64,000 bases of DNA from the NCBI GenBank assembly GCA_965235115.1, contig OZ249436.1, positions 3,846,001-3,910,000 of the forward strand, read 5' to 3'. Under the pieces are notes generated by a model. It was given only the letters and a program-made list of their open reading frames with translations. It did not search any database and was not told the DNA's origin. Shown piece by piece: positions 52,089 through 63,673 of the stretch (its first letter is position 1; every line of letters begins with the position of its first letter). The stretch is from Laetmonice hystrix (taxonomy: Eukaryota). The position numbers were made by a program, and so were the translations under genes.

Positions 52089-55000
52089 TCACGAGAGAAG
52101 AGAAAACTTGCGGTCCTTCCTGGAAGGGGTACGAGCAAACATGGGCGAGCCTGGGGAGGCCAGCTGGGCCATGTTATCATACACAGACAGCTGGTCCGGG
52201 TTGCCGGTGGCTGAGGCACAGTCTGGGGCCAGGTAGTCGATCTTGAGACGGGCCCCGATCTGCTGCAGGAGTACTGTCTGCTGCTGGGCACACACTTGAA
52301 GACCTCGTAACCTGTGCGCCACAAAACGAAAACCACACTAGGAGGTCAACATGGCACACTTTCACGAAAGTTGGTGGTAAATACATGTAATAAAAAATTA
52401 TCGTTATCTTTGGCCCCTAACCCCGCCGCCCAGACATCCACCAACCTCTAGCCCTGCCCCTAACCTCACCACCCAGACATCCACCAACCTCTAGCCCTGC
52501 CTCTAATCCCGCCGACCAGACATCCACCAACCTCTAGCCCTGCCCCTAACCCCGCCACCCAGACATCCACCAACCTCTAGCCCTGCCCCTAACCCCACCA
52601 CCCAGACATCCACCAAGCTCTAGCCCTGCCCCTAACCCCGCCACCCAGACATCAACCAACCTCTAGCCCTGCCCCTAACCCCGCCGACCAGACATCCACC
52701 AACCTCTAGCCCTGACCCTAACCCCGCCACCCAGACATCCACCAACCTCTAGCCCTGCCCCTAACCCCACCACCCAGACATCCACCAACCTCTAGCCCTG
52801 CCCCTAACCCCGCCACCCAGACATCCACCAAGCTCTAGCCCTGCCCCTAACCCCGCCACCCAGACATCCACCAACCTCTAGCCCTGCCCCTAACCCCGCC
52901 ACCCAGACATCCACCAACCTCTAGCACTGCCCCTAACCCCCCGCCACCCAGACATCCACCAACCTCTAGCCCTGCCCCTAACCCCGCCGACCAGACATCC
53001 ACCAACCTCTAGCCCTGACCCTAACCCCGCCGCAGAGACATCCACCAACCTCTAGCCCTGCCCCTAACCCCGCCGCAGAGACATCCACCAACCTCTAGCC
53101 CTGCCCCTAACCCCGCCACCCAGACATCCACCAACCTCTAGCCCTGCCCCTAACCCCGCCGCCCAGACATCCACCAACCTCTAGCCCTGCCCCTAACCCC
53201 ACCACCCAGACATCCACCAACCTCTAGCCCTGCCCCTAACCCCACCGACCAGACATCCACCAAGCTCTAGCCCTGCCCCTAACCCCACCGACCAGACATC
53301 CACCAACCTCTAGCCCTGCCCCTAACCCCGCCACCCAGACATCCACCAAGCTCTAGCCCTGCCCCTAACCCCGCCACCCAGACATCCACCAACCTCTAGC
53401 CCTGCCCCTAACCCCCTGCCGACCAGACATCCACCAACCTCTAGCCCTGCCCCTAACCCCGCCACCCAGACATCCACCAACCTCTAGCCCTGCCCCTAAC
53501 CCCGCCACCCAGACATCCACCAACCTCTAGCCCTGCCCCTAACCCCACCGACCAGACATCCACCAAGCTCTAGCCCTGCCCCTAACCCCACCGACCAGAC
53601 ATCCACCAACCTCTAGCCCTGCCCCTAACCCCGCCACCCAGACATCCACCAAGCTCTAGCCCTGCCCCTAACCCCGCCACCCAGACATCCACCAACCTCT
53701 AGCCCTGCCCCTACCCCCCCCCCCACCAGACATCCACCAACCTCTAGCCCTGCCCCTAACCCCGCCGCACAGACATTCACCAACCTCTAGGCCTGCCCCT
53801 ACCCCCCCCCCCCCCACCAGACATCCACCAAGCTCTAGCCCTGCCCCTAACCCCGCCACCCAGACATCCACCAACCTCTAGCCCTGCCCCTACCCCCCCC
53901 CCCCCACCAGACATCCACCAACCTCTAGCCCTGCCCCTAACCCCGCCGCACAGACATTCACCAACCTCTACCCCCCCCCCCCCCATCACGCCCATGTTGG
54001 ATAAGAAAAACATCGCGCCCTGACCTGCTTTGATGTTGGCGGAACTCGCGCTCCATTCGTTCTAGTCGTTCTGCCAGACGATCGCGCTTGTCGCGTTGTA
54101 TAAAGTGGACGTTCTGCGAACTCCCAATGGCCAGTCGTTTTAGCTGCGGGAAGTTAGACAGAAACAAGTATCATTAACGGATAACGTTAGACAAAAGGTT
54201 AGACAGAAACAAGTATCATTAACGGATAAAGTTAGACAGAAACAAGTATCATTAACGGATAAAGTTAGACAGAAACAAGTATCATTAACGGATAAAGTTA
54301 GACAGAAACAAGTTTTAGCTGCGTCAAGTTAGACAGAAACAAGTATCATTAAATAATGTTAGACAAAAACAAGTTTTAGCTGCGGGAAGTTAGACCAGTA
54401 GATCATTTCGTTACACACTCATACCTTGTGCCACCACCAGTGAATCGTTTCGTTACACAGTCATACCTTGTGCCACCACCAGTGGATCGTTTCGTTACAC
54501 AGTCATACCTTGTGCCACTACCAGTGGATCGTTTCGTTACACAGTCATACCTTGTGCCACCACCAATGGATCGTTTCGTTACACAGTCATACCTTGTGCC
54601 ACCACCAGTGGATCGTTTCGTTACAAAGTCATACCTTGTGCCACCACCAGTAGATCGTTTCGTTACACTGTCATACCTTGTGCCACCACCAGTGGATCGT
54701 TTCGTTACACAGTCATACCTTGTGCCACCACCAGTGGATCGTTTCGTTACACTGTCATACCTTGTGCCACCACCAGTGGATCGTTTCGTTACACAGTCAT
54801 ACCTTGTGCCACCACCAATGGATTGTTTCGTTACACAGTCATACCTTGTGCCACCACCAGTGGATTGTTTCGTTACACTGTCATACCTTGTGCCACCACC
54901 AGTGGATTGTTTCGTTACACAGTCATACCTTGTGCCACCACCAGTGGATCGTTTCGTTACACAGTCATACCTTGTGCCACCACCAGTAGATCGTTTCGTT

Positions 55001-58000
55001 ACACTGTCATACCTTGTGCCACCACCAGTGGATCGTTTCGTTACACAGTCATACCTTGTGCCACCACCAGTGGATCGTTTCGTTACACTGTCATACCTTG
55101 TGCCACCACCACTGGATCGTTTCGTTACACAGTCATACCTTGTGCCACCACCAGTGGATTGTTTCGTTACAGTCATACCTTGTGCCACCACCAGTGGATC
55201 GTTTCGTTACACTGTCATACCTTGTGCCACCACCAGTAGATCGTTTCGTTACACTGTCATACCTTGTGCCACCACCAGTAGATCGTTTCGTTACACTGTC
55301 ATACCTTGTGCCACCACCAGTGGATCGTTTCGTTACACAGTCATACCTTGTGCCACCACCAGTGGATCGTTTCGTTACACTGTCATACCTTGTGCCACCA
55401 CCAGTGGATCGTTTCGTTACACAGTCATACCTTGTGCCACCACCAGTGGATTGTTTCGTTACAGTCATACCTTGTGCCACCACCAGTGGATCGTTTCGTT
55501 ACACTGTCATACCTTGTGCCACCACCAGTGGATCGTTTCGTTACACTGTCATACCTTGTGCCACCACCAGTGAATCGTTAGGTACACAGTCATACCTTGT
55601 GCCACCACCAGTGGATCGTTAGGTACACAGTCATACCTTGTGCCACCACCAGTGGATTGTTTCGTTACACAGTCATACCTTGTGCCACCACCAGTGGATC
55701 GTTTCGTTACACAGTCATACCTTGTGCCACCACCAGTGGATCGTTTCGTTACACAGTCATACCTTGTGCCACCACCAGTGGATCGTTTCGTTACACAGTC
55801 ATACCTTGTGCCACCACCAGTGGATCGTTTCGTTACACAGTCATACCTTGTGCCACCACCAATGGATCGTTTCGTTACACTGTCATACCTTGTGCCACCA
55901 CCAATGGATCGTTTCGTTACACTGTCATACCTTGTGCCACCACCAATGGATCGTTTCGTTACACAGTCATACCTTGTGCCACCACCAGTGGATTGTTTCG
56001 TTTGGTTTGATGACGGCCCTCCGGACGTATACCTTCCGTTGTAACCACCGTGGCATTGTGTTCTCAAAGTTGTACAATAAATCCACCTGCAAGACAACAC
56101 AGGCATGTTTACTTCACAAACCAGCAGGATCTATATTATATCTCACAATGCACTCAGTGATAACGCCTGTAGGACTACTATATCTCATAATGCACTCAGT
56201 GATACCGCCTGTAGGACTATTATATCTCATAATGCACTCAGTGATAACGCCTGTAGGACTATTATATCTCACAATGCACTCAGTGATACCGCCTGTAGGA
56301 CTATTATAATTCGATCAGTTATACCGACCTGTAGGGCTATACGTTTTAAGTACGCATTCCTTTGGATCTTTTCAATGTCACCAACAGCTATACCGATCTG
56401 TAAAGAAAAGATATCGTATCGTATGTTGGCATGTTTTTGTTTGTGTGTTAAGGTTATAAATGTGACAACTTCTATAGATTTTGCCAAGAAACTGGGCAGT
56501 TTGTGAACAATATGGAATATAAAGGGCCTTATCCACTAAGCCGGTCAGCCGATTCTGAAAATACACCAGTATGGTTGGCTCTACTATACTGAGGACGTGA
56601 ACGGTGAAGCTCAGTTTTTGTCCCTTTACTGTCCGATTACGCCTCCCTTTTCTAGTTCGTCCACAGAAGTCAGCAGTGCTTGATATGGCCGGAGGTGATC
56701 AGGCTGGGGAAGGTCATGTATGGCAACATCTCCATTTGGTGGTTACAACTCAAAATCTATAATCACAATGTCAACCTCCATCCAAAACCTATCGGCATCC
56801 CTACCCCCAGACAAAGCCCTCTGTCCCTGCCCCTGCACCCAACCCCCAATTGTGAAGAAATGTCACCATAGGTTACCCACCATGTCACCAAGGGTTACCC
56901 ACCATGTCACCAAGGGTTACCCACCATGTCACCAAGGGTTACCCACCATGTCACCAAGGGTTACCCACCATGTCACCAAGGGTTACCCACCATGTCACCA
57001 AGGGTTACCCACCATGTCACCAAGGGTTACCCACCATGTCACCAAGGGTTACCCACCGTGTCACCAAGGGTTACCCACCATGTCACCAAGGGTTACCCAC
57101 CAGGTCACCAAGGGTTACCCACCATGTCACCAAGGGTTATCCACCATGTCACCAAGGGTTACCCACCATGTCACCAAGGGTTACTCACCATGTCACCAAG
57201 GGTTACCCACCGTGTCACCAAGGGTTACCCACCATGTCACCAAGGGTTACCCACCATGTCACCAAGGGTTACCCACCATGTCACCAAGGGTTACCCACCA
57301 TGTCACCAAGGGTTACCCACCGTGTCACCAAGGGTTACCCACCGTGTCACCAAAGGTTACCCACCGTGTCACCAAGGGTTACCCACCGTGTCACCAAGGG
57401 TTACCCACCGTGTCACCAAGGGTTACCCACCGTGTCACCAAAGGTTACCCACCGTGTCACCAAGGGTTACCCACCATGTCACCAAGGGTCACCAAGGGTT
57501 ACCCACCATGTCACCAAGGGTTACCCACCATGTCACCAAGGGTTACCCACCATGTCACCAAGGGTTACCCACCATGTCACCAAGGGTTACCCACCATGAG
57601 GTTCATGAGGACAAGGGGCATGAGGAAGAGGAAGATGACGAGCAGGATGTAAACATCCGCTTGGAACGGTTTGAGGTCAGGGGTGACGAAGTTATCGACG
57701 AACTCGATCTCTCCCAGCGTCATGACGAACGTATTGAGGACGGCCGTCCCGATACTCCCGAATACTTCCTGTAACCAAGACAACGGTTTACCAAACCCTG
57801 GCATAACATATGGTCACGACAATTATAATAAAGACGATTTATTTAGTGTGTGATGGGTCTACACCATTTATAGTTGTTACAAGCGTTCGTACAAGAGTGT
57901 GAATCTTGTTAGGACACCAAGTATAACATTAAGATCCACTGTTACTAACTGTCAAACAGTTTTGATGACTTTTAACTGAATTACAGATAAGATGTAATAC

Positions 58001-61000
58001 TTTGAGCATGTTTCCATTATTTTGGATTATCATTAGATCAATCAATGATAAAAGCATGCAAATAAACTGTCGAGAGGGTTTGAGGAATTAGGTATGTATA
58101 CACCACTAGTCGAGAACATATAATATTATACGTCTCAAGTCAACACCCTTCTATAAGAATGGACTCTCTCCTTTTGTTAGTGACAACGAATGAACTCATG
58201 AACATCATCGTTCGGCCCCATGCCTCTTTAGTACAGTCAGAATGAGAAACATAAAACTATCTTTACTTACCCAACGCTCCTAAAACACGTGTTAATGACA
58301 GCAGAAAATAGGAAGGTCTTTAGTTTCTCCACTAATACACCGAACATTAGCACAATTAAACAGCTCAAAAGAAGAAGATTAGCCTATCTCTTCGATTTAA
58401 TAATATTGTTAGCAGATTAATTGTTAGAAAATAATCAAATAAAATGTTTTCAATTGTTAATTTCTGAAGACACTCCCTATGATAGCTGAACGCCTCGCCT
58501 GGACCCGACCTGACAGAATATGCGAGATCACACTTAGCCAAAATTGGTGGAGAAGAAATTGGGTTTCCAGGACGCACTTGTTAGCAATTTAAAGGGGCAC
58601 CTAAATGTCCAAAATGACACTATTTCAGAATTTTCGGAAGGGTTAACTGTCTCCCCCCCCCCGGTCCAGGATATTGGAAAGAGGAGGGGTGGTCATGAGG
58701 ACCAACTGGCAAAAGGGGGTCAAACGGGGATCATTCGGAAAGAACTAACTTGAACAGAAAATGGAGAAAACTTGGTGCCAAAGAGGATGGGTCAGACCTC
58801 GTGAACCCCCTATGTTCGCCCCTGCCCTTCTCATGCACCTGGATGTAACCAACCTTTTGGTCACCCTTCTCCTGGGTGTACATGAGGACGTAGAAGGACC
58901 CGGCAAAGGCCCAGCAGAAGAAGAAATAGACGAGAACAGCCTATCCGAATCAAAGAGATGTTAAATATTATTTCCACTATGACCATGGCATGAAGTGCTG
59001 TTGGGAACCAAGAAGGCAGTGTGATGTGTAACGTCGTGATAAAAGCGCGCCAGAACGTACACTGCTTCTCCAAAATTCATGTTCCGCTCAAGAACAGGAA
59101 AACCAGAAGAGCCTGTGGCAAGAAACCGTCAGTGTATAGAAGTGCTATGTGACCGACGTGACGGGTGTATAGAAGTGCTATGTGACCGACGTGACGGGTG
59201 GACAAACACACGATGGGTCCAGTATCTGAAACCTAAAACCCAGTGGCAGCAGCAGCAGCAGGTGTTGGCCACCTACCGGTAAAATAAGACGCATGGTGCC
59301 GTAAAAGGCATTGGCAAACGCACAGCTGAAGAACAGCCACAGCGACGACACCTGCAAATTAGGGTCCGACAAAAAATGACAATGAAACATACAATTTTCA
59401 TCATTTAATAGAAGTACTAAACAGAACTACATAACTTGTTACACAATTATCTTACATCTGCTGTCTTTAAATTATGCACGTCTTGCCTAGGATGTGTATC
59501 TTGATACACTTGTACAATCATGTAACTTTTATACCTGTTGTACTTATCTGTCGTTTGCATCTTCAAAAAACACCAGGCCCATTCAGAAAGATTTCACTCT
59601 TTGATTTTGTTAACACATTCCAGATCAACGAAATTCCTGTAATCTTCTAGCTAACTAAAACTGATTACGACGAAAGTGTTCTTGTACATTTGTTTGTTTA
59701 ATTTCGTATAAACTATTATGTGGCTTCACGTCTAGTCACCAATGCACTTAACGTACACTGACACTGCGACTTGTTTGTAAGTGATTTACTTAGTAATGGT
59801 AACTTTCTGGGAAATGTACAATACAAAAATACCTTACCTTTAATAAACTGCTTAGCACGGTCACAAACATTATGACGTATATTCCTACAAAGTCGATCCT
59901 GTAAAATTAGAAGCCATGATGTGATTCGTAGTGTTGAAGGACAAAGAAAGGTCATAACGTGTCTTCTCATACAAATCAAGAATTCGGGTGAATCTGTCGT
60001 TACTTTGTCTCAACTATTGACACCGTTTTCTGCCGCAGATGTTATAGAACAGTTAAATGACATGTTTTGATGAAAAACGCTTCCATTGTTGTTGAAAGCC
60101 CTCAGTAGATTTAAAACATCGACCCTGCACACTTTGTCAACTAAGGCCATCTACACATGGAAAATAAAATAAAATCACTTCAAGATGAAATTGCCATCAA
60201 AGTATAAGTATGATAAAGTTTATGCTAAGATGGTGAGTGTACACCTATCGGCGGAGGTACATGATAAAGTTTATCCTAAGATGGTGAGTGTACACCTACC
60301 GGCGGAGGTACATGATAAAGTTTATACTAAGATGGTGAGTGTACACCTATCGGCGGAGGTACATGATAAAGTTTATACTAAGATGGTGAGTGTACACATA
60401 CCGGCGGAGGTACATGATAAAGTTTATCCTAAGATGGTGAGTGTACACCTACCGGCGGAGGTACATGATAAAGTTTATACTAAGATGGTGAGTGTACACA
60501 TACCGGCGGAGGTACATGATAAAGTTTATACTAAGATGGTGAGTGTACACCTACCGGCGGAGGTACATGATAAAGTTTATACTAAGATGGTGAGTGTACA
60601 CATACCGGCGGAGGTACATGATAAAGTTTATACTAAGATGGTGAGTGTACACATACCGGCGGAGGTACATGATAAAGTTTATACTAAGATGGTGAGTGTA
60701 CACCTACCGGCGGAGGTACATGATAAAGTTTATACTAAGATGGTGAGTGTACACCTACCGGCGGAGGTACATGATAAAGTTTATACTAAGATGGTGAGTG
60801 TACACATACCGGCGGAGGTACATGATAAAGTTTATACTAAGATGGTGAGTGTACACCTACCGGCGGAGGTACATGATACAGTTTATACTAAGATGGTGAG
60901 TGTACACCTACCGGCGGAGGTACATGATACAGTTTATACTAAGATGGTGAGTGTACACCTACCGGCGGAGGTACATGATAAAGTTGATGCTAAGATGGTG

Positions 61001-63673
61001 AGTGTACACCTACCGGCGGAGGTACATGATAAAGTTGATGCTAAGATGGTGATTATACACCTATCGGCGGAGGTACATGATAAAGTTTATGCTAAGATGG
61101 TGAGTGTACACCTACCGGCGGAGGTACATGATAAAGTCTATACTAAGATGGTGAGTGTACACCTACCGGCGGAGGTACATGATAAAGTTTATACTAAGAT
61201 GGTGAGTGTACACCTACCGGCGGAGGTACATGATAAAGTTTATACTAAGATGGTGAGTGTACACATACCGGCGGAGGTACATGATAAAGTTTATACTAAG
61301 ATGGTGAGTGTACACCTACCGGCGGAGGTACATGATACAGTTTATACTAAGATGGTGAGTGTACACCTACCGGCGGAGGTACATGATACAGTTTATACTA
61401 AGATGGTGAGTGTACACCTACCGGCGGAGGTACATGATAAAGTTTATACTAAGATGGTGAGTGTACACCTACCGGCGGAGGTACATGATAAAGTTTATAC
61501 TAAGATGGTGAGTGTACACATACCGGCGGAGGTACATGATAAAGTTTATACTAAGATGGTGAGTGTACACATACCGGCGGAGGTACATGATAAAGTTTAT
61601 GCTAAGATGGTGAGTGTACACCTACCGGCGGAGGTACATGATAAAGTTTATGCTAAGATGGTGAGTGTACACCTACCGGCGGAGGTACATGATAAAGTTT
61701 ATGCTAAGATGGTGAGTGTACACCTACCGGCGGAGGTACATGATAAAGTTGATGCTAAGATGGTGAGTGTACACCTACCGGCGGAGGTACATGATAAAGT
61801 TGATGCTAAGATGGTGAGTGTACACCTACCGGCGGAGGTACATGATAAAGTTGATGCTAAGATGGTGATTATACACCTATCGGCGGAGGTACATGATAAA
61901 GTTTATGCTAAGATGGTGAGTGTACACCTACCGGCGGAGGTACATGATAAAGTCTATGTTAAGATGGTGAGTGTACACCTACCGGCGGAGGTACATGATA
62001 AAGTCTATGCTAAGATGGTGAGTGTACACCTACCGGCGGAGGTACATGATAAAGTTTATACTAAGATGGTGAGTGTACACCTACCGGCGGAGGTACATGA
62101 TAAAGTTTATACTAAGATGGTGAGTGTACACCTACCGGCGGAGGTACATGATAAAGTTTATACTAAGATGGTGAGTGTACACCTACCGGCGGAGGTACAT
62201 GATAAAGTTTATACTAAGATGGTGAGTGTACACCTACCGGCGGAGGTACATGATAAAGTTTATACTAAGATGGTGAGTGTACACCTACCGGCGGAGGTAC
62301 ATGATAAAGTTTATACTAAGATGGTGAGTGTACACCTACCGGCGGAGGTACATGATAAAGTTTATACTAAGATGGTGAGTGTACACCTACCGGCGGAGGT
62401 ACATGATAAAGTTTATACTAAGATGGTGAGTGTACACCTACCGGCGGAGGTACATGATAAAGTTTATACTAAGATGGTGAGTGCACACCTACCGGCGGAG
62501 GTACATGATAAAGTTTATACTAAGATGGTGAGTGTACACATACCGGCGGAGGTACATGATAAAGTTTATACTAAGATGGTGAGTGTACACCTACCGGCGG
62601 AGGTACATGATAAAGTTTATACTAAGATGGTGAGTGTAAACCTACCGGCGGAGGTACAGGATAAAGTTTATACTAAGATGGTGAGTGTAAACCTACCGGC
62701 GGAGGTACATGATAAAGTTTATGCTAAGATGTACACCTACCGGCGGAGGTACATGATAAAGTCTATGCTAAGATGGTGAGTGTACACCTACCGGCGGAGG
62801 TACATGATAAAGTTTATACTAAGATGGTGAGTGTACACCTACCGGCGGAGGTACAGGATAAAGTTTATACTAAGATGGTGAGTGTAAACCTACCGGCGGA
62901 GGTACAGGATAAAGTTTATACTAAGATGGTGAGTGTAAACCTACCGGCGGAGGTACATGATAAAGTTTATACTAAGATGGTGAGTGTAAACCTACCGGCG
63001 GAGGTACATGATAAAGTTTATACTAAGATGGTGAGTGTAAACCTACCGGCGGAGGTACATGATAAAGTTTATACTAAGATGGTGAGTGTAAACCTACCGG
63101 CGGAGGTACATGATAAAGTTTATACTAAGATGGTGAGTGTAAACCTACCGGCGGAGGTACATGATAAAGTTTATACTAAGATGGTGAGTGTACACCTACC
63201 GGCGGAGGTACATGATAAAGTTTATACTAAGATGGTGAGTGTACACCTACCGGCGGAGGGACATGATAAAGTTTATACTAAGATGGTGAGTGTAAACCTA
63301 CCGGCGGAGGTACATGATAAAGTTTATACTAAGATGGTGAGTGTAAACCTACCGGCGGAGGTACATGATAAAGTTTATACTAAGATGGTGAGTGTACACC
63401 TACCGGCGGAGGTACATGATAAAGTTTATACTAAGATGGTGAGTGTAAACCTACCGGCGGAGGGACATGATAAAGTTTATACTAAGATGGTGAGTGTACT
63501 ACCTACCGGCGGAGGTACATGATAAAGTTGATCCATGCCATGAAGAGAGCGAGCCAGCCAGCCCGCCACTGACGCAGACACGGATAGTACCCGATCGGGT
63601 AGATGAACGCGTATGTAGTCGCAACCAGAATCAACGCTATCAGATTGAAGACGTTGAAAAAATATTTAAATCC
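52089..63673 (-). CDS. TRPA1: TRPA1-like transient receptor potential channel, S3 to C-terminus (ankyrin region outside window)
   Basis: Exons 63673-63507 (QWRAGWLALFMAWINFIMYLRR), 59898-59838 (IDFVGIYVIMFVTVLSSLLK), S5 exon 59351-59277 or 58940-58854, 57768-57595 (NTFVMTLGEIEF...MPLVLMNLM), 56397-56329 (IGIAVGDIEKIQRNAYLKRIALQ), 56086-55973, 54143-54025, 52311-52089. Phases are consistent; matches recalled TRPA1 S4-S6 and TRP-like helix. Orthology within TRPA is not established. Confidence 0.9.
52413..53975 (-). repeat. 43-bp G-rich (on pre-mRNA strand) minisatellite, ~36 copies, last TRPA intron
   Basis: Plus-strand unit CCCCTAACCCCGCCACCCAGACATCCACCAACCTCTAGCCCTG. Confidence 0.95.
54138..54396 (-). 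repeat. Degenerate array copying a TRPA acceptor region
   Basis: Plus-strand TTTTAGCTGCGGGAAGTTAGAC (acceptor GCAG|CTAAAA on minus) at 54138, ~54313, ~54374, with AAGTTAGACAGAAACAAGTATCATTAACGGATA units between. Confidence 0.8.
54396..56002 (-). repeat. 42-bp array, ~38 copies of TRPA exon end plus donor
   Basis: Minus-strand unit AACGAAACGATCCACTGGTGGTGGCACAAG|GTATGACTGTGT; real donor at 55973/55972. Confidence 0.96.
56132..56342 (-). repeat. ~43-bp array, ~4 copies with inactivated donor copies
   Basis: Minus-strand ATAGTCCTACAG|GCGGTAT or GCGTTAT copies versus the real ATAGCCCTACAG|GTCGGTAT at 56329. Confidence 0.75.
56861..57598 (-). repeat. 22-bp array, ~33 copies seeded on TRPA S6 donor
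   Basis: Minus-strand unit CATG|GTGGGTAACCCTTGGTGA; real donor at 57595/57594. Confidence 0.96.
58271..58279 (-). CDS. Candidate 9-nt microexon (ERW) of TRPA1-like gene
   Basis: Minus strand: TTTTCTGCTGTCATTAACACGTGTTTTAG|GAGCGTTGG|GTAAGTAAAG in a phase-0 intron. Confidence 0.45.
58854..58940 (-). CDS. TRPA S5 exon, variant B
   Basis: GATAG|...AAG|GTTGGT, 87 nt, AVLVYFFFCWAFAGSFYVLMYTQEKGDQK. Confidence 0.8.
59277..59351 (-). CDS. TRPA S5 exon, variant A
   Basis: TTTGCAG|...CCG|GTAGGT, 75 nt, VSSLWLFFSCAFANAFYGTMRLILP. Confidence 0.75.
60209..63533 (-). repeat. 51-bp array, ~65 copies of TRPA S4 exon end plus donor
   Basis: Minus-strand unit AAACTTTATCATGTACCTCCGCCG|GTAGGTGTACACTCACCATCTTAGTAT; real donor at 63507/63506. 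Confidence 0.97.

Follow-up and report, generated by a model that had tools for sequence, protein, structure and literature searches.

Two tandem S5 exons, candidates for mutually exclusive splicing, in a TRPA1-like channel gene of Laetmonice hystrix

A window of 64,000 nt from the Laetmonice hystrix genome (assembly GCA_965235115.1, contig OZ249436.1, positions 3,846,001 to 3,910,000) carries on its minus strand the 3' half of an apparently intact spiralian TRPA1-like cation-channel gene, in which two adjacent exons, A and B, each encode a version of the transmembrane helix S5. Mutually exclusive splicing of these exons was judged, by a modest lean, to be the best explanation of the arrangement. 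The small S5 exon was tandemly duplicated in this gene and each mRNA would take exactly one of A or B, such that one gene could give rise to two channel subunits, identical save for S5. The predicted isoforms would keep the residues on which helix packing depends, while their gating or their sensitivity to ligands would not be the same. That A is spliced at all, that it excludes B, and that the two differ in function are each predictions made from genomic DNA.

Positions 57500-60200 were re-read and translated, and the coordinates, translations and ungapped alignment of A and B given in an original prediction for this stretch all proved correct. The exons are adjacent, of similar length (75 and 87 nt) and 336 nt apart at one intron position, which is the arrangement of a tandem-duplicated pair. 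Both are in phase 0 at either end and bordered by AG...GT, and every junction among the S4-S5 linker, A, B and pore-helix/S6 exons is likewise phase 0. The acceptor of exon A reads ...cattttttgtcggaccctaatttgcag/G (...tttgcag/G), with a strong polypyrimidine tract, and its donor CCG/gtaggt; for exon B the acceptor is ...ctctttgattcggatag/G (...cggatag/G), with a weaker tract than that of A, and the donor AAG/gttggt. At the protein level, 8 of 25 aligned residues are shared and all of them lie inside codons 7-20 (FF, AFA, FY and M). The corresponding DNA contains a 42-nt core, equally offset from both acceptors, in which 31 of 42 bases are identical. The alignment score of this core was 29, where 200 shuffles produced a mean of 18.6 (standard deviation, SD, 2.2) and a maximum of 28; this was a significant similarity, by a narrow margin. 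In the 627-Mb assembly, comprising 35 contigs, each exon was found to be single-copy, and exon A lay outside any repeat family.

Homology to S5 was evaluated with a profile of seven sequences that included neither A nor B: P0003 (a full-length relative of 1153 aa), P0005, P0006, P0007, P0008, the S5 exon of a metagenomic locus (L009, described below) and a paralogue from the same genome (L003). When 63,394 windows of 25 residues were scanned across six frames of 104 kb, exon B ranked first (28.0 bits) and exon A second (13.5 bits, E = 0.17), and the third window scored 8.8 bits. Scored singly against 4,374 targets, the exons returned E = 0.012 for A and E = 5e-7 for B. The match to the S5 profile exceeds chance, although that of A taken alone is a modest one. 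The runner-up among S5-like windows of 104 kb sits in the very intron where an S5 is expected, is in frame and is bordered by splice sites, and the observation is therefore regarded as real. The prediction of two tandem S5 homologues in compatible phase was in this way upheld by the profile ranks, the core alignment, the shared phase and the AG/GT borders. B is read as the standard S5 of the family and A as a divergent S5.

The most serious alternative, although one considered rather unlikely, is that A is an unused or noisily spliced leftover of the tandem exon duplication, with B constitutive and a single channel produced. The decay of such a copy was simulated by applying 39 random changes, equal to the divergence of A from B (39/75 nt), to the first 25 codons of B in each of 20,000 copies. 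An open frame was kept by 31.9% of copies, but not one of these ~6,388 open copies reached the 13.5 bits of exon A (mean -1.9, SD 2.2), and 3.3% of them kept at least 8 identical residues. The divergence was also strongly uneven, with 11 differences in the 42 nt of the core and 28 in the 33 nt of the flanks (Fisher p = 4.9e-7). G+C content at third codon positions (GC3) was coding-like in exon A, at 0.68, compared with 0.645 over the 867 codons of the gene's coding matches and 0.39 +/- 0.125 in intronic 75-nt windows, of which 2.1% of 1,682 attained 0.68. The splice sites of A are intact, and its donor 9-mer, CCG/GTAGGT, is that of the constitutive S3-S4 exon; recognition would be expected, and a harmful exon should have lost such sites. 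The residues common to A and B include an A, F, F and Y set (A883, F884, F888 and Y889 of human TRPA1) that does not vary between this family and the TRPA1 channels of human and fly. These observations argue against exon A being a uniformly, neutrally decayed copy of B.

Other observations weigh against mutually exclusive splicing, and a number of them are favourable to an unused duplicate. An open frame is by itself a weak sign, as the simulated copies demonstrate (32% remained open), and the nucleotide score of A against B barely tops the best of the 200 shuffles. The uneven divergence could also stem from past gene conversion that refreshed the core alone. No signal of the kind measured by the ratio of non-synonymous to synonymous change (dN/dS) was seen in the A/B core, where a hand count gave 2-3 synonymous and approximately 8 non-synonymous nucleotide changes. 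Exon A contains several residues that are small or polar (S, S, S, C, N, G, T) and attains half the score of B against the family profile; when whole stop-to-stop fragments were used as profile targets it fell outside the top matches listed. B is also the nearer to P0003, sharing 12 of 21 residues where A shares 9 of 21 (by hand count), with 27-28 bits against 13.5.

Relatives of the gene have so far contributed further evidence of this kind. A single, B-like S5 was present in all five family proteins examined (P0003, P0005 and those of Owenia, Lineus and Pinctada), with core motifs of AFAGSFY, AFASAFY or AFTSAFY. An S5 resembling A was sought in a word-indexed search of 5.8 billion proteins with a profile of A and B, which returned nine candidates, none at E <= 10, and in an exhaustive HMMER scan covering 1.84 billion representatives, which returned two matches, both repetitive and unrelated. 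These blank searches are weak evidence, because in both libraries a difference of 25 residues in 1,150 would leave two isoforms in one cluster. The other proteins retrieved with the pore exon were P0001, which is 84% identical, begins at the pore exon and is without S5, and P0002 and P0004, which are open-frame calls on short contigs; the clusters of these three contained no further members, and no transcript-derived protein of L. hystrix itself was retrieved. For the DNA of relatives, a genome-contig search with P0002 gave 119 pattern matches, none of which was confirmed, and a search of metagenome contigs gave two loci, both distant. One of the latter, L009 (7659-10177 of a 20.7-kb contig), is an animal TRPA1-like gene with a pore exon 46% identical to that of the present gene and a matching layout of separate S3-S4, linker, S5 and pore exons. 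Its S5 exon, of 69 nt and phase 0 (VLVLFMLFILAFATTFYLLIDEH), directly follows the final K of the linker, and no second S5 was detected by motif scan in the introns flanking it. The separation of S5 in a phase-0 exon of its own is therefore old, and the single copy in L009 suggests that the duplication took place in the lineage of the present genome only.

Polymorphism was also examined, by comparing the assembly with three DNA runs from one sample of the same organism; the sequencing runs that cover the locus are of DNA only, and their contigs show no joints, which has no bearing on expression. At least 40 single-base variants were identified across 2,321 nt. The diversity of window positions 57590-59910 was high in its own right: across 1,907 nt of intron, the contigs of this one sample departed from the assembly at 36 listed single-base variants. 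The four variants listed within 394 nt of exon were all synonymous; exon A has one of them (TTA>TTG) and the pore exon the other three, and none of the listed variants fell in exon B. The intron between A and B contained only one of those listed in 336 nt, and therefore this comparison has no power to test constraint on exon A.

Exclusive use of A or B, the reading preferred here, must also contend with the absence of an evident barrier at the level of RNA. Both exon lengths are multiples of three, such that inclusion of both exons, or skipping of both, stays in frame and escapes nonsense-mediated decay; nor is joint inclusion barred by a 336-nt intron or by splice sites that are all GT-AG. 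Pairing between docking and selector sequences was assessed, by a crude method, from whole-intron duplex energies, and these were within the range of shuffles (-143.1, -172.8 and -163.9 kcal/mol, against shuffle means of -131.5, -186.6 and -158.9, SD 7-8). Five short inverted repeats were observed, with no evident pattern. At the level of protein, joint inclusion would be expected to add a seventh helix and to invert the pore topology, so that the loop would lie on the wrong side.

The same freedom of combination is compatible with another, distinctly improbable, explanation, namely that A is spliced in but that subunits containing it (or rarer forms with both exons or neither) would serve to regulate channel number, in a non-conducting or dominant-negative manner. 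In mouse TRPA1, splice forms that do not conduct and have a regulatory role have been described. The atypical S5 of exon A, with its polar and small residues, shorter turret and halved profile score, is consistent with such a role, as is the fact that every exon combination is in frame. However, its retention of the A, F, F and Y that are invariant to human and fly TRPA1 suggests that the helix it encodes is still able to pack within the pore domain. Finally, the second S5 exon is hardly to be attributed to a collapsed haplotype or misjoin in the assembly, since A and B are 48% identical in DNA and so are not alleles, each is single-copy in the assembly, and each was recovered with its flanks in contigs of all three DNA runs with 0-2 letters differing, although no listed DNA contig spans both exons, the contigs breaking at a 33-bp tandem duplication between them.

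That duplication, which is perfect (59132-59197), is the point within the A-B intron at which all short-read contigs break. The same intron contains a CAG run at ~59245, which in one of the sequencing runs varies in length by 3 bases, and a minus-strand open frame at window positions 59089-59229 with a weak tblastn match, LLVFLFL included, to the pore/S6 region of P0003 (33% identity, E = 0.34). This match is probably due to chance, but could be a remnant of a larger original duplication.

If A and B are indeed exchanged, the positions at which they differ are those where differences might be expected to matter. P0003 aligns without gaps to human TRPA1 in the S5 region. Human R872 is matched there by the K of LLK, which puts the first residue of the S5 exon exactly opposite S873; the exon continues beyond Y889 and includes the turret. 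Human residues 873, 874, 875, 877, 878 and 881 help to form the pocket that accepts piperidine carboxamides and A-967079, and V875 underlies species-specific responses to menthol and cold (PMC6926016, citing Xiao 2008 and Chen 2013). At these positions A has V, S, S, W, L and S, while B has A, V, L, Y, F and C, so that all six differ. The turret encoded by A is also four residues shorter and is without the charged EKGDQK of B. The same source describes S5 residues of TRPA1 as deciding responses to antagonists, anaesthetics, menthol and cold, as well as differences between species (PMC6926016), and agrees with the original statement that S5 determines menthol and antagonist sensitivity and species differences in gating. 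Should the exons prove to be alternatives, a natural gene that swaps S5 would represent a ready-made chimera experiment, with isoforms that differ only at pocket-lining positions.

The gene as a whole was laid out by tblastn with P0003, P0005 and P0006 on the window and 40 kb of further DNA (Table 1). By this means it was seen to extend from ankyrin exons at extended coordinate ~82,666 down to a last exon near 52,089. The ankyrin exons, on the same strand, occupy extended coordinates ~69,400 to 82,666 and so reach ~18.7 kb past the window end; two of them match Pfam Ank families (E = 1e-9 to 3e-18). The gene thus has the long N-terminal ankyrin-repeat domain expected of a TRPA1-type channel, together with a six-helix ion-transport domain that includes a pore helix, S6 and a TRP-like helix and is closest to solved TRPA1 structures. 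The end of the S3-S4 exon, ...CTCCGCCG/gtaggt, joins the first G of the linker exon to give YLRRID, as in relatives, and the linker exon is 91% identical to both P0003 and P0005 across 22 residues.

Table 1. Exons of the TRPA1-like gene around S5, with the A-B intron (window coordinates; a slash marks the exon-intron border)
Feature	Position	Strand	Description
S3-S4 exon, 3' part	63506..63655	-	ends ...WINFIMYLRR, donor CCG/gtaggt; tblastn with P0003 and P0005
S4-S5 linker exon	59838..59898	-	61 nt, (R)IDFVGIYVIMFVTVLSSLLK, ends ...SSLLK in phase 0, donor AAG/gtaagg
S5 exon A (divergent)	59277..59351	-	75 nt, 25 codons, VSSLWLFFSCAFANAFYGTMRLILP, phase 0 at both ends
Intron between exons A and B	58941..59276	-	336 nt
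S5 exon B (standard) and turret	58854..58940	-	87 nt, 29 codons, AVLVYFFFCWAFAGSFYVLMYTQEKGDQK, phase 0 at both ends
Pore-helix/S6 exon	57598..57768	-	171 nt, 57 codons, starts EVFGSIGTAVLNTFVMTLGEIEF..., phase 0 at both ends, donor ATG/gtgggt
Exon after S6, TRP-like helix	56320..56400, approximate	-	IGIAVGDIEKIQRNAYLKRIALQV; tblastn

Membership of the TRPA1 family had been claimed for the gene at the outset, and is borne out by two comparisons. Against the PDB, the pore exon was most similar to fly TRPA1 (7ykr, E = 7.7e-4) and then to human TRPA1 chains. P0003, which was retrieved by a protein search with the pore exon, matched human TRPA1 across residues 90-1064 (E = 4e-131) and also Pfam Ion_trans. 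Searches of Pfam with the pore exon and the S3-S4 exon singly returned no family, single exons being too short. On these matches the gene is placed in the TRPA1 family. The named relatives are from Owenia fusiformis, Lineus longissimus and Pinctada imbricata, and the family is for this reason described as spiralian; the Lineus relative carries the RefSeq name 'TRPA1-like'. Two further TRPA-type pore exons were found in the genome of L. hystrix itself, at 37-42% identity. These paralogues were too distant to serve as a comparison, and one of them has S4, the linker and S5 within a single exon.

A separate feature of the gene is that several successive introns start with minisatellites that are seeded at, and copy, the 5' splice site. 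Within the window these are located at 60210-63529, 56860-57598, 54394-56002, 56134-56308 and 52413-53974, and further examples occur at L005 2704-3454 and from L005 8536 to L006 1257. An array of 65 units of 51 bp begins inside the S3-S4 exon, its unit comprising approximately the last 22 exon bases, GTAGGT and intron, such that 'INFIMYLRR' and the donor are repeated ~60 times. Another, with a 22-bp unit, begins at the donor of the pore exon (CATG/GTGGGTAACC...). The gene region contains 16 arrays, and six of these terminate no more than 25 nt from the 3' end of an exon, as placed by tblastn. To our knowledge, no such run of splice-site-seeded minisatellites in one gene has been described. 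A single human case, the minisatellite of F7 intron 7, has been reported (PMC1557585).

Known cases of exon choice among channels resemble the present pair in part. A literature search, with papers in subscription journals outside its scope, found no exon swap inside the pore domain of a TRPA1. Two candidate precedents were discarded: a crayfish paper in which mutually exclusive exons are merely an analysis category, and the TRPA5 forms of the codling moth, which are truncations. One close parallel is with insect TrpA1, in Drosophila and Anopheles, whose mutually exclusive exons encode parts of the N-terminus and of the stretch that precedes the transmembrane region (exon 1 A/B, exon 10a/10b; PMC11471635). 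There too, one gene tunes the chemical and thermal responses of its sensory isoforms through exon choice (PMC11471635). The statement in the original prediction that isoform variation of Drosophila TRPA1 affects these regions and not S5 is in agreement with that account. Unlike A and B, the alternative exons of insects encode no pore-domain helix, and the isoforms were established by reverse-transcription PCR and electrophysiology, whereas the present pair is known from genomic sequence alone.

Exchange of pore-domain exons is documented for NALCN and other four-domain channels (PMC3557258). In these invertebrate channels (the selectivity filter of NALCN; S5/S6 or turret exons of Cav and Nav), exclusive tandem exons alter the pore or turret without gene duplication (PMC3557258), as A and B would, but the channels belong to another branch of the superfamily and are formed from a single long polypeptide. 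In a tetrameric TRP channel such as this, a swapped S5 would alter all four subunits or yield mixed tetramers. Among TRP channels, pore-loop variants of TRPM3 arise through alternative splice-site use. The pharmacology of TRPM3 depends on alternative splicing within the pore region (PMC9290681), which is a likeness to the reading of mutually exclusive S5 exons, but what the abstract of PMC9290681 describes is a varying pore-loop length and not the exchange of a whole helix by means of a homologous exon.

A relative with comparable isoforms is the TRPA1-like gene of Lineus longissimus, for which a cluster of four RefSeq isoforms was found. Isoforms X1 and X2 (P0011 and P0007; XP_064641020 and XP_064641028), both of 1144 aa, differ at nine positions, all within the pore/S6 exon block; X3 and X4 have 8 and 9 residues fewer in the ankyrin region. 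The pattern in X1 and X2, which are annotation models, points to two alternative pore/S6 exons. Lineus shares with the present gene the spiralian TRPA1-like family (an RRID-GIYVIMF linker and a VMTLGEI pore helix), as well as isoforms of the same length that differ within one block, at 9 of ~57 residues. It differs in that the swapped block is the pore-helix/S6 exon rather than S5, and in that its versions are far more alike than A and B. In the present gene the pore/S6 exon, too, is in phase 0 and has a length divisible by three. From these cases it may tentatively be proposed that spiralian TRPA1-like genes have repeatedly diversified their pore domain by exon swapping, at different exons (S5 here, pore-helix/S6 in Lineus), with distinct gating or chemical tuning as the result and possibly mixed tetramers. 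If mutually exclusive use of A and B is confirmed, the two genes together would show exon choice within the pore to be a means by which TRPA1 sensors are tuned in invertebrates, a practice known so far only for cytoplasmic parts of the channel, in insects.

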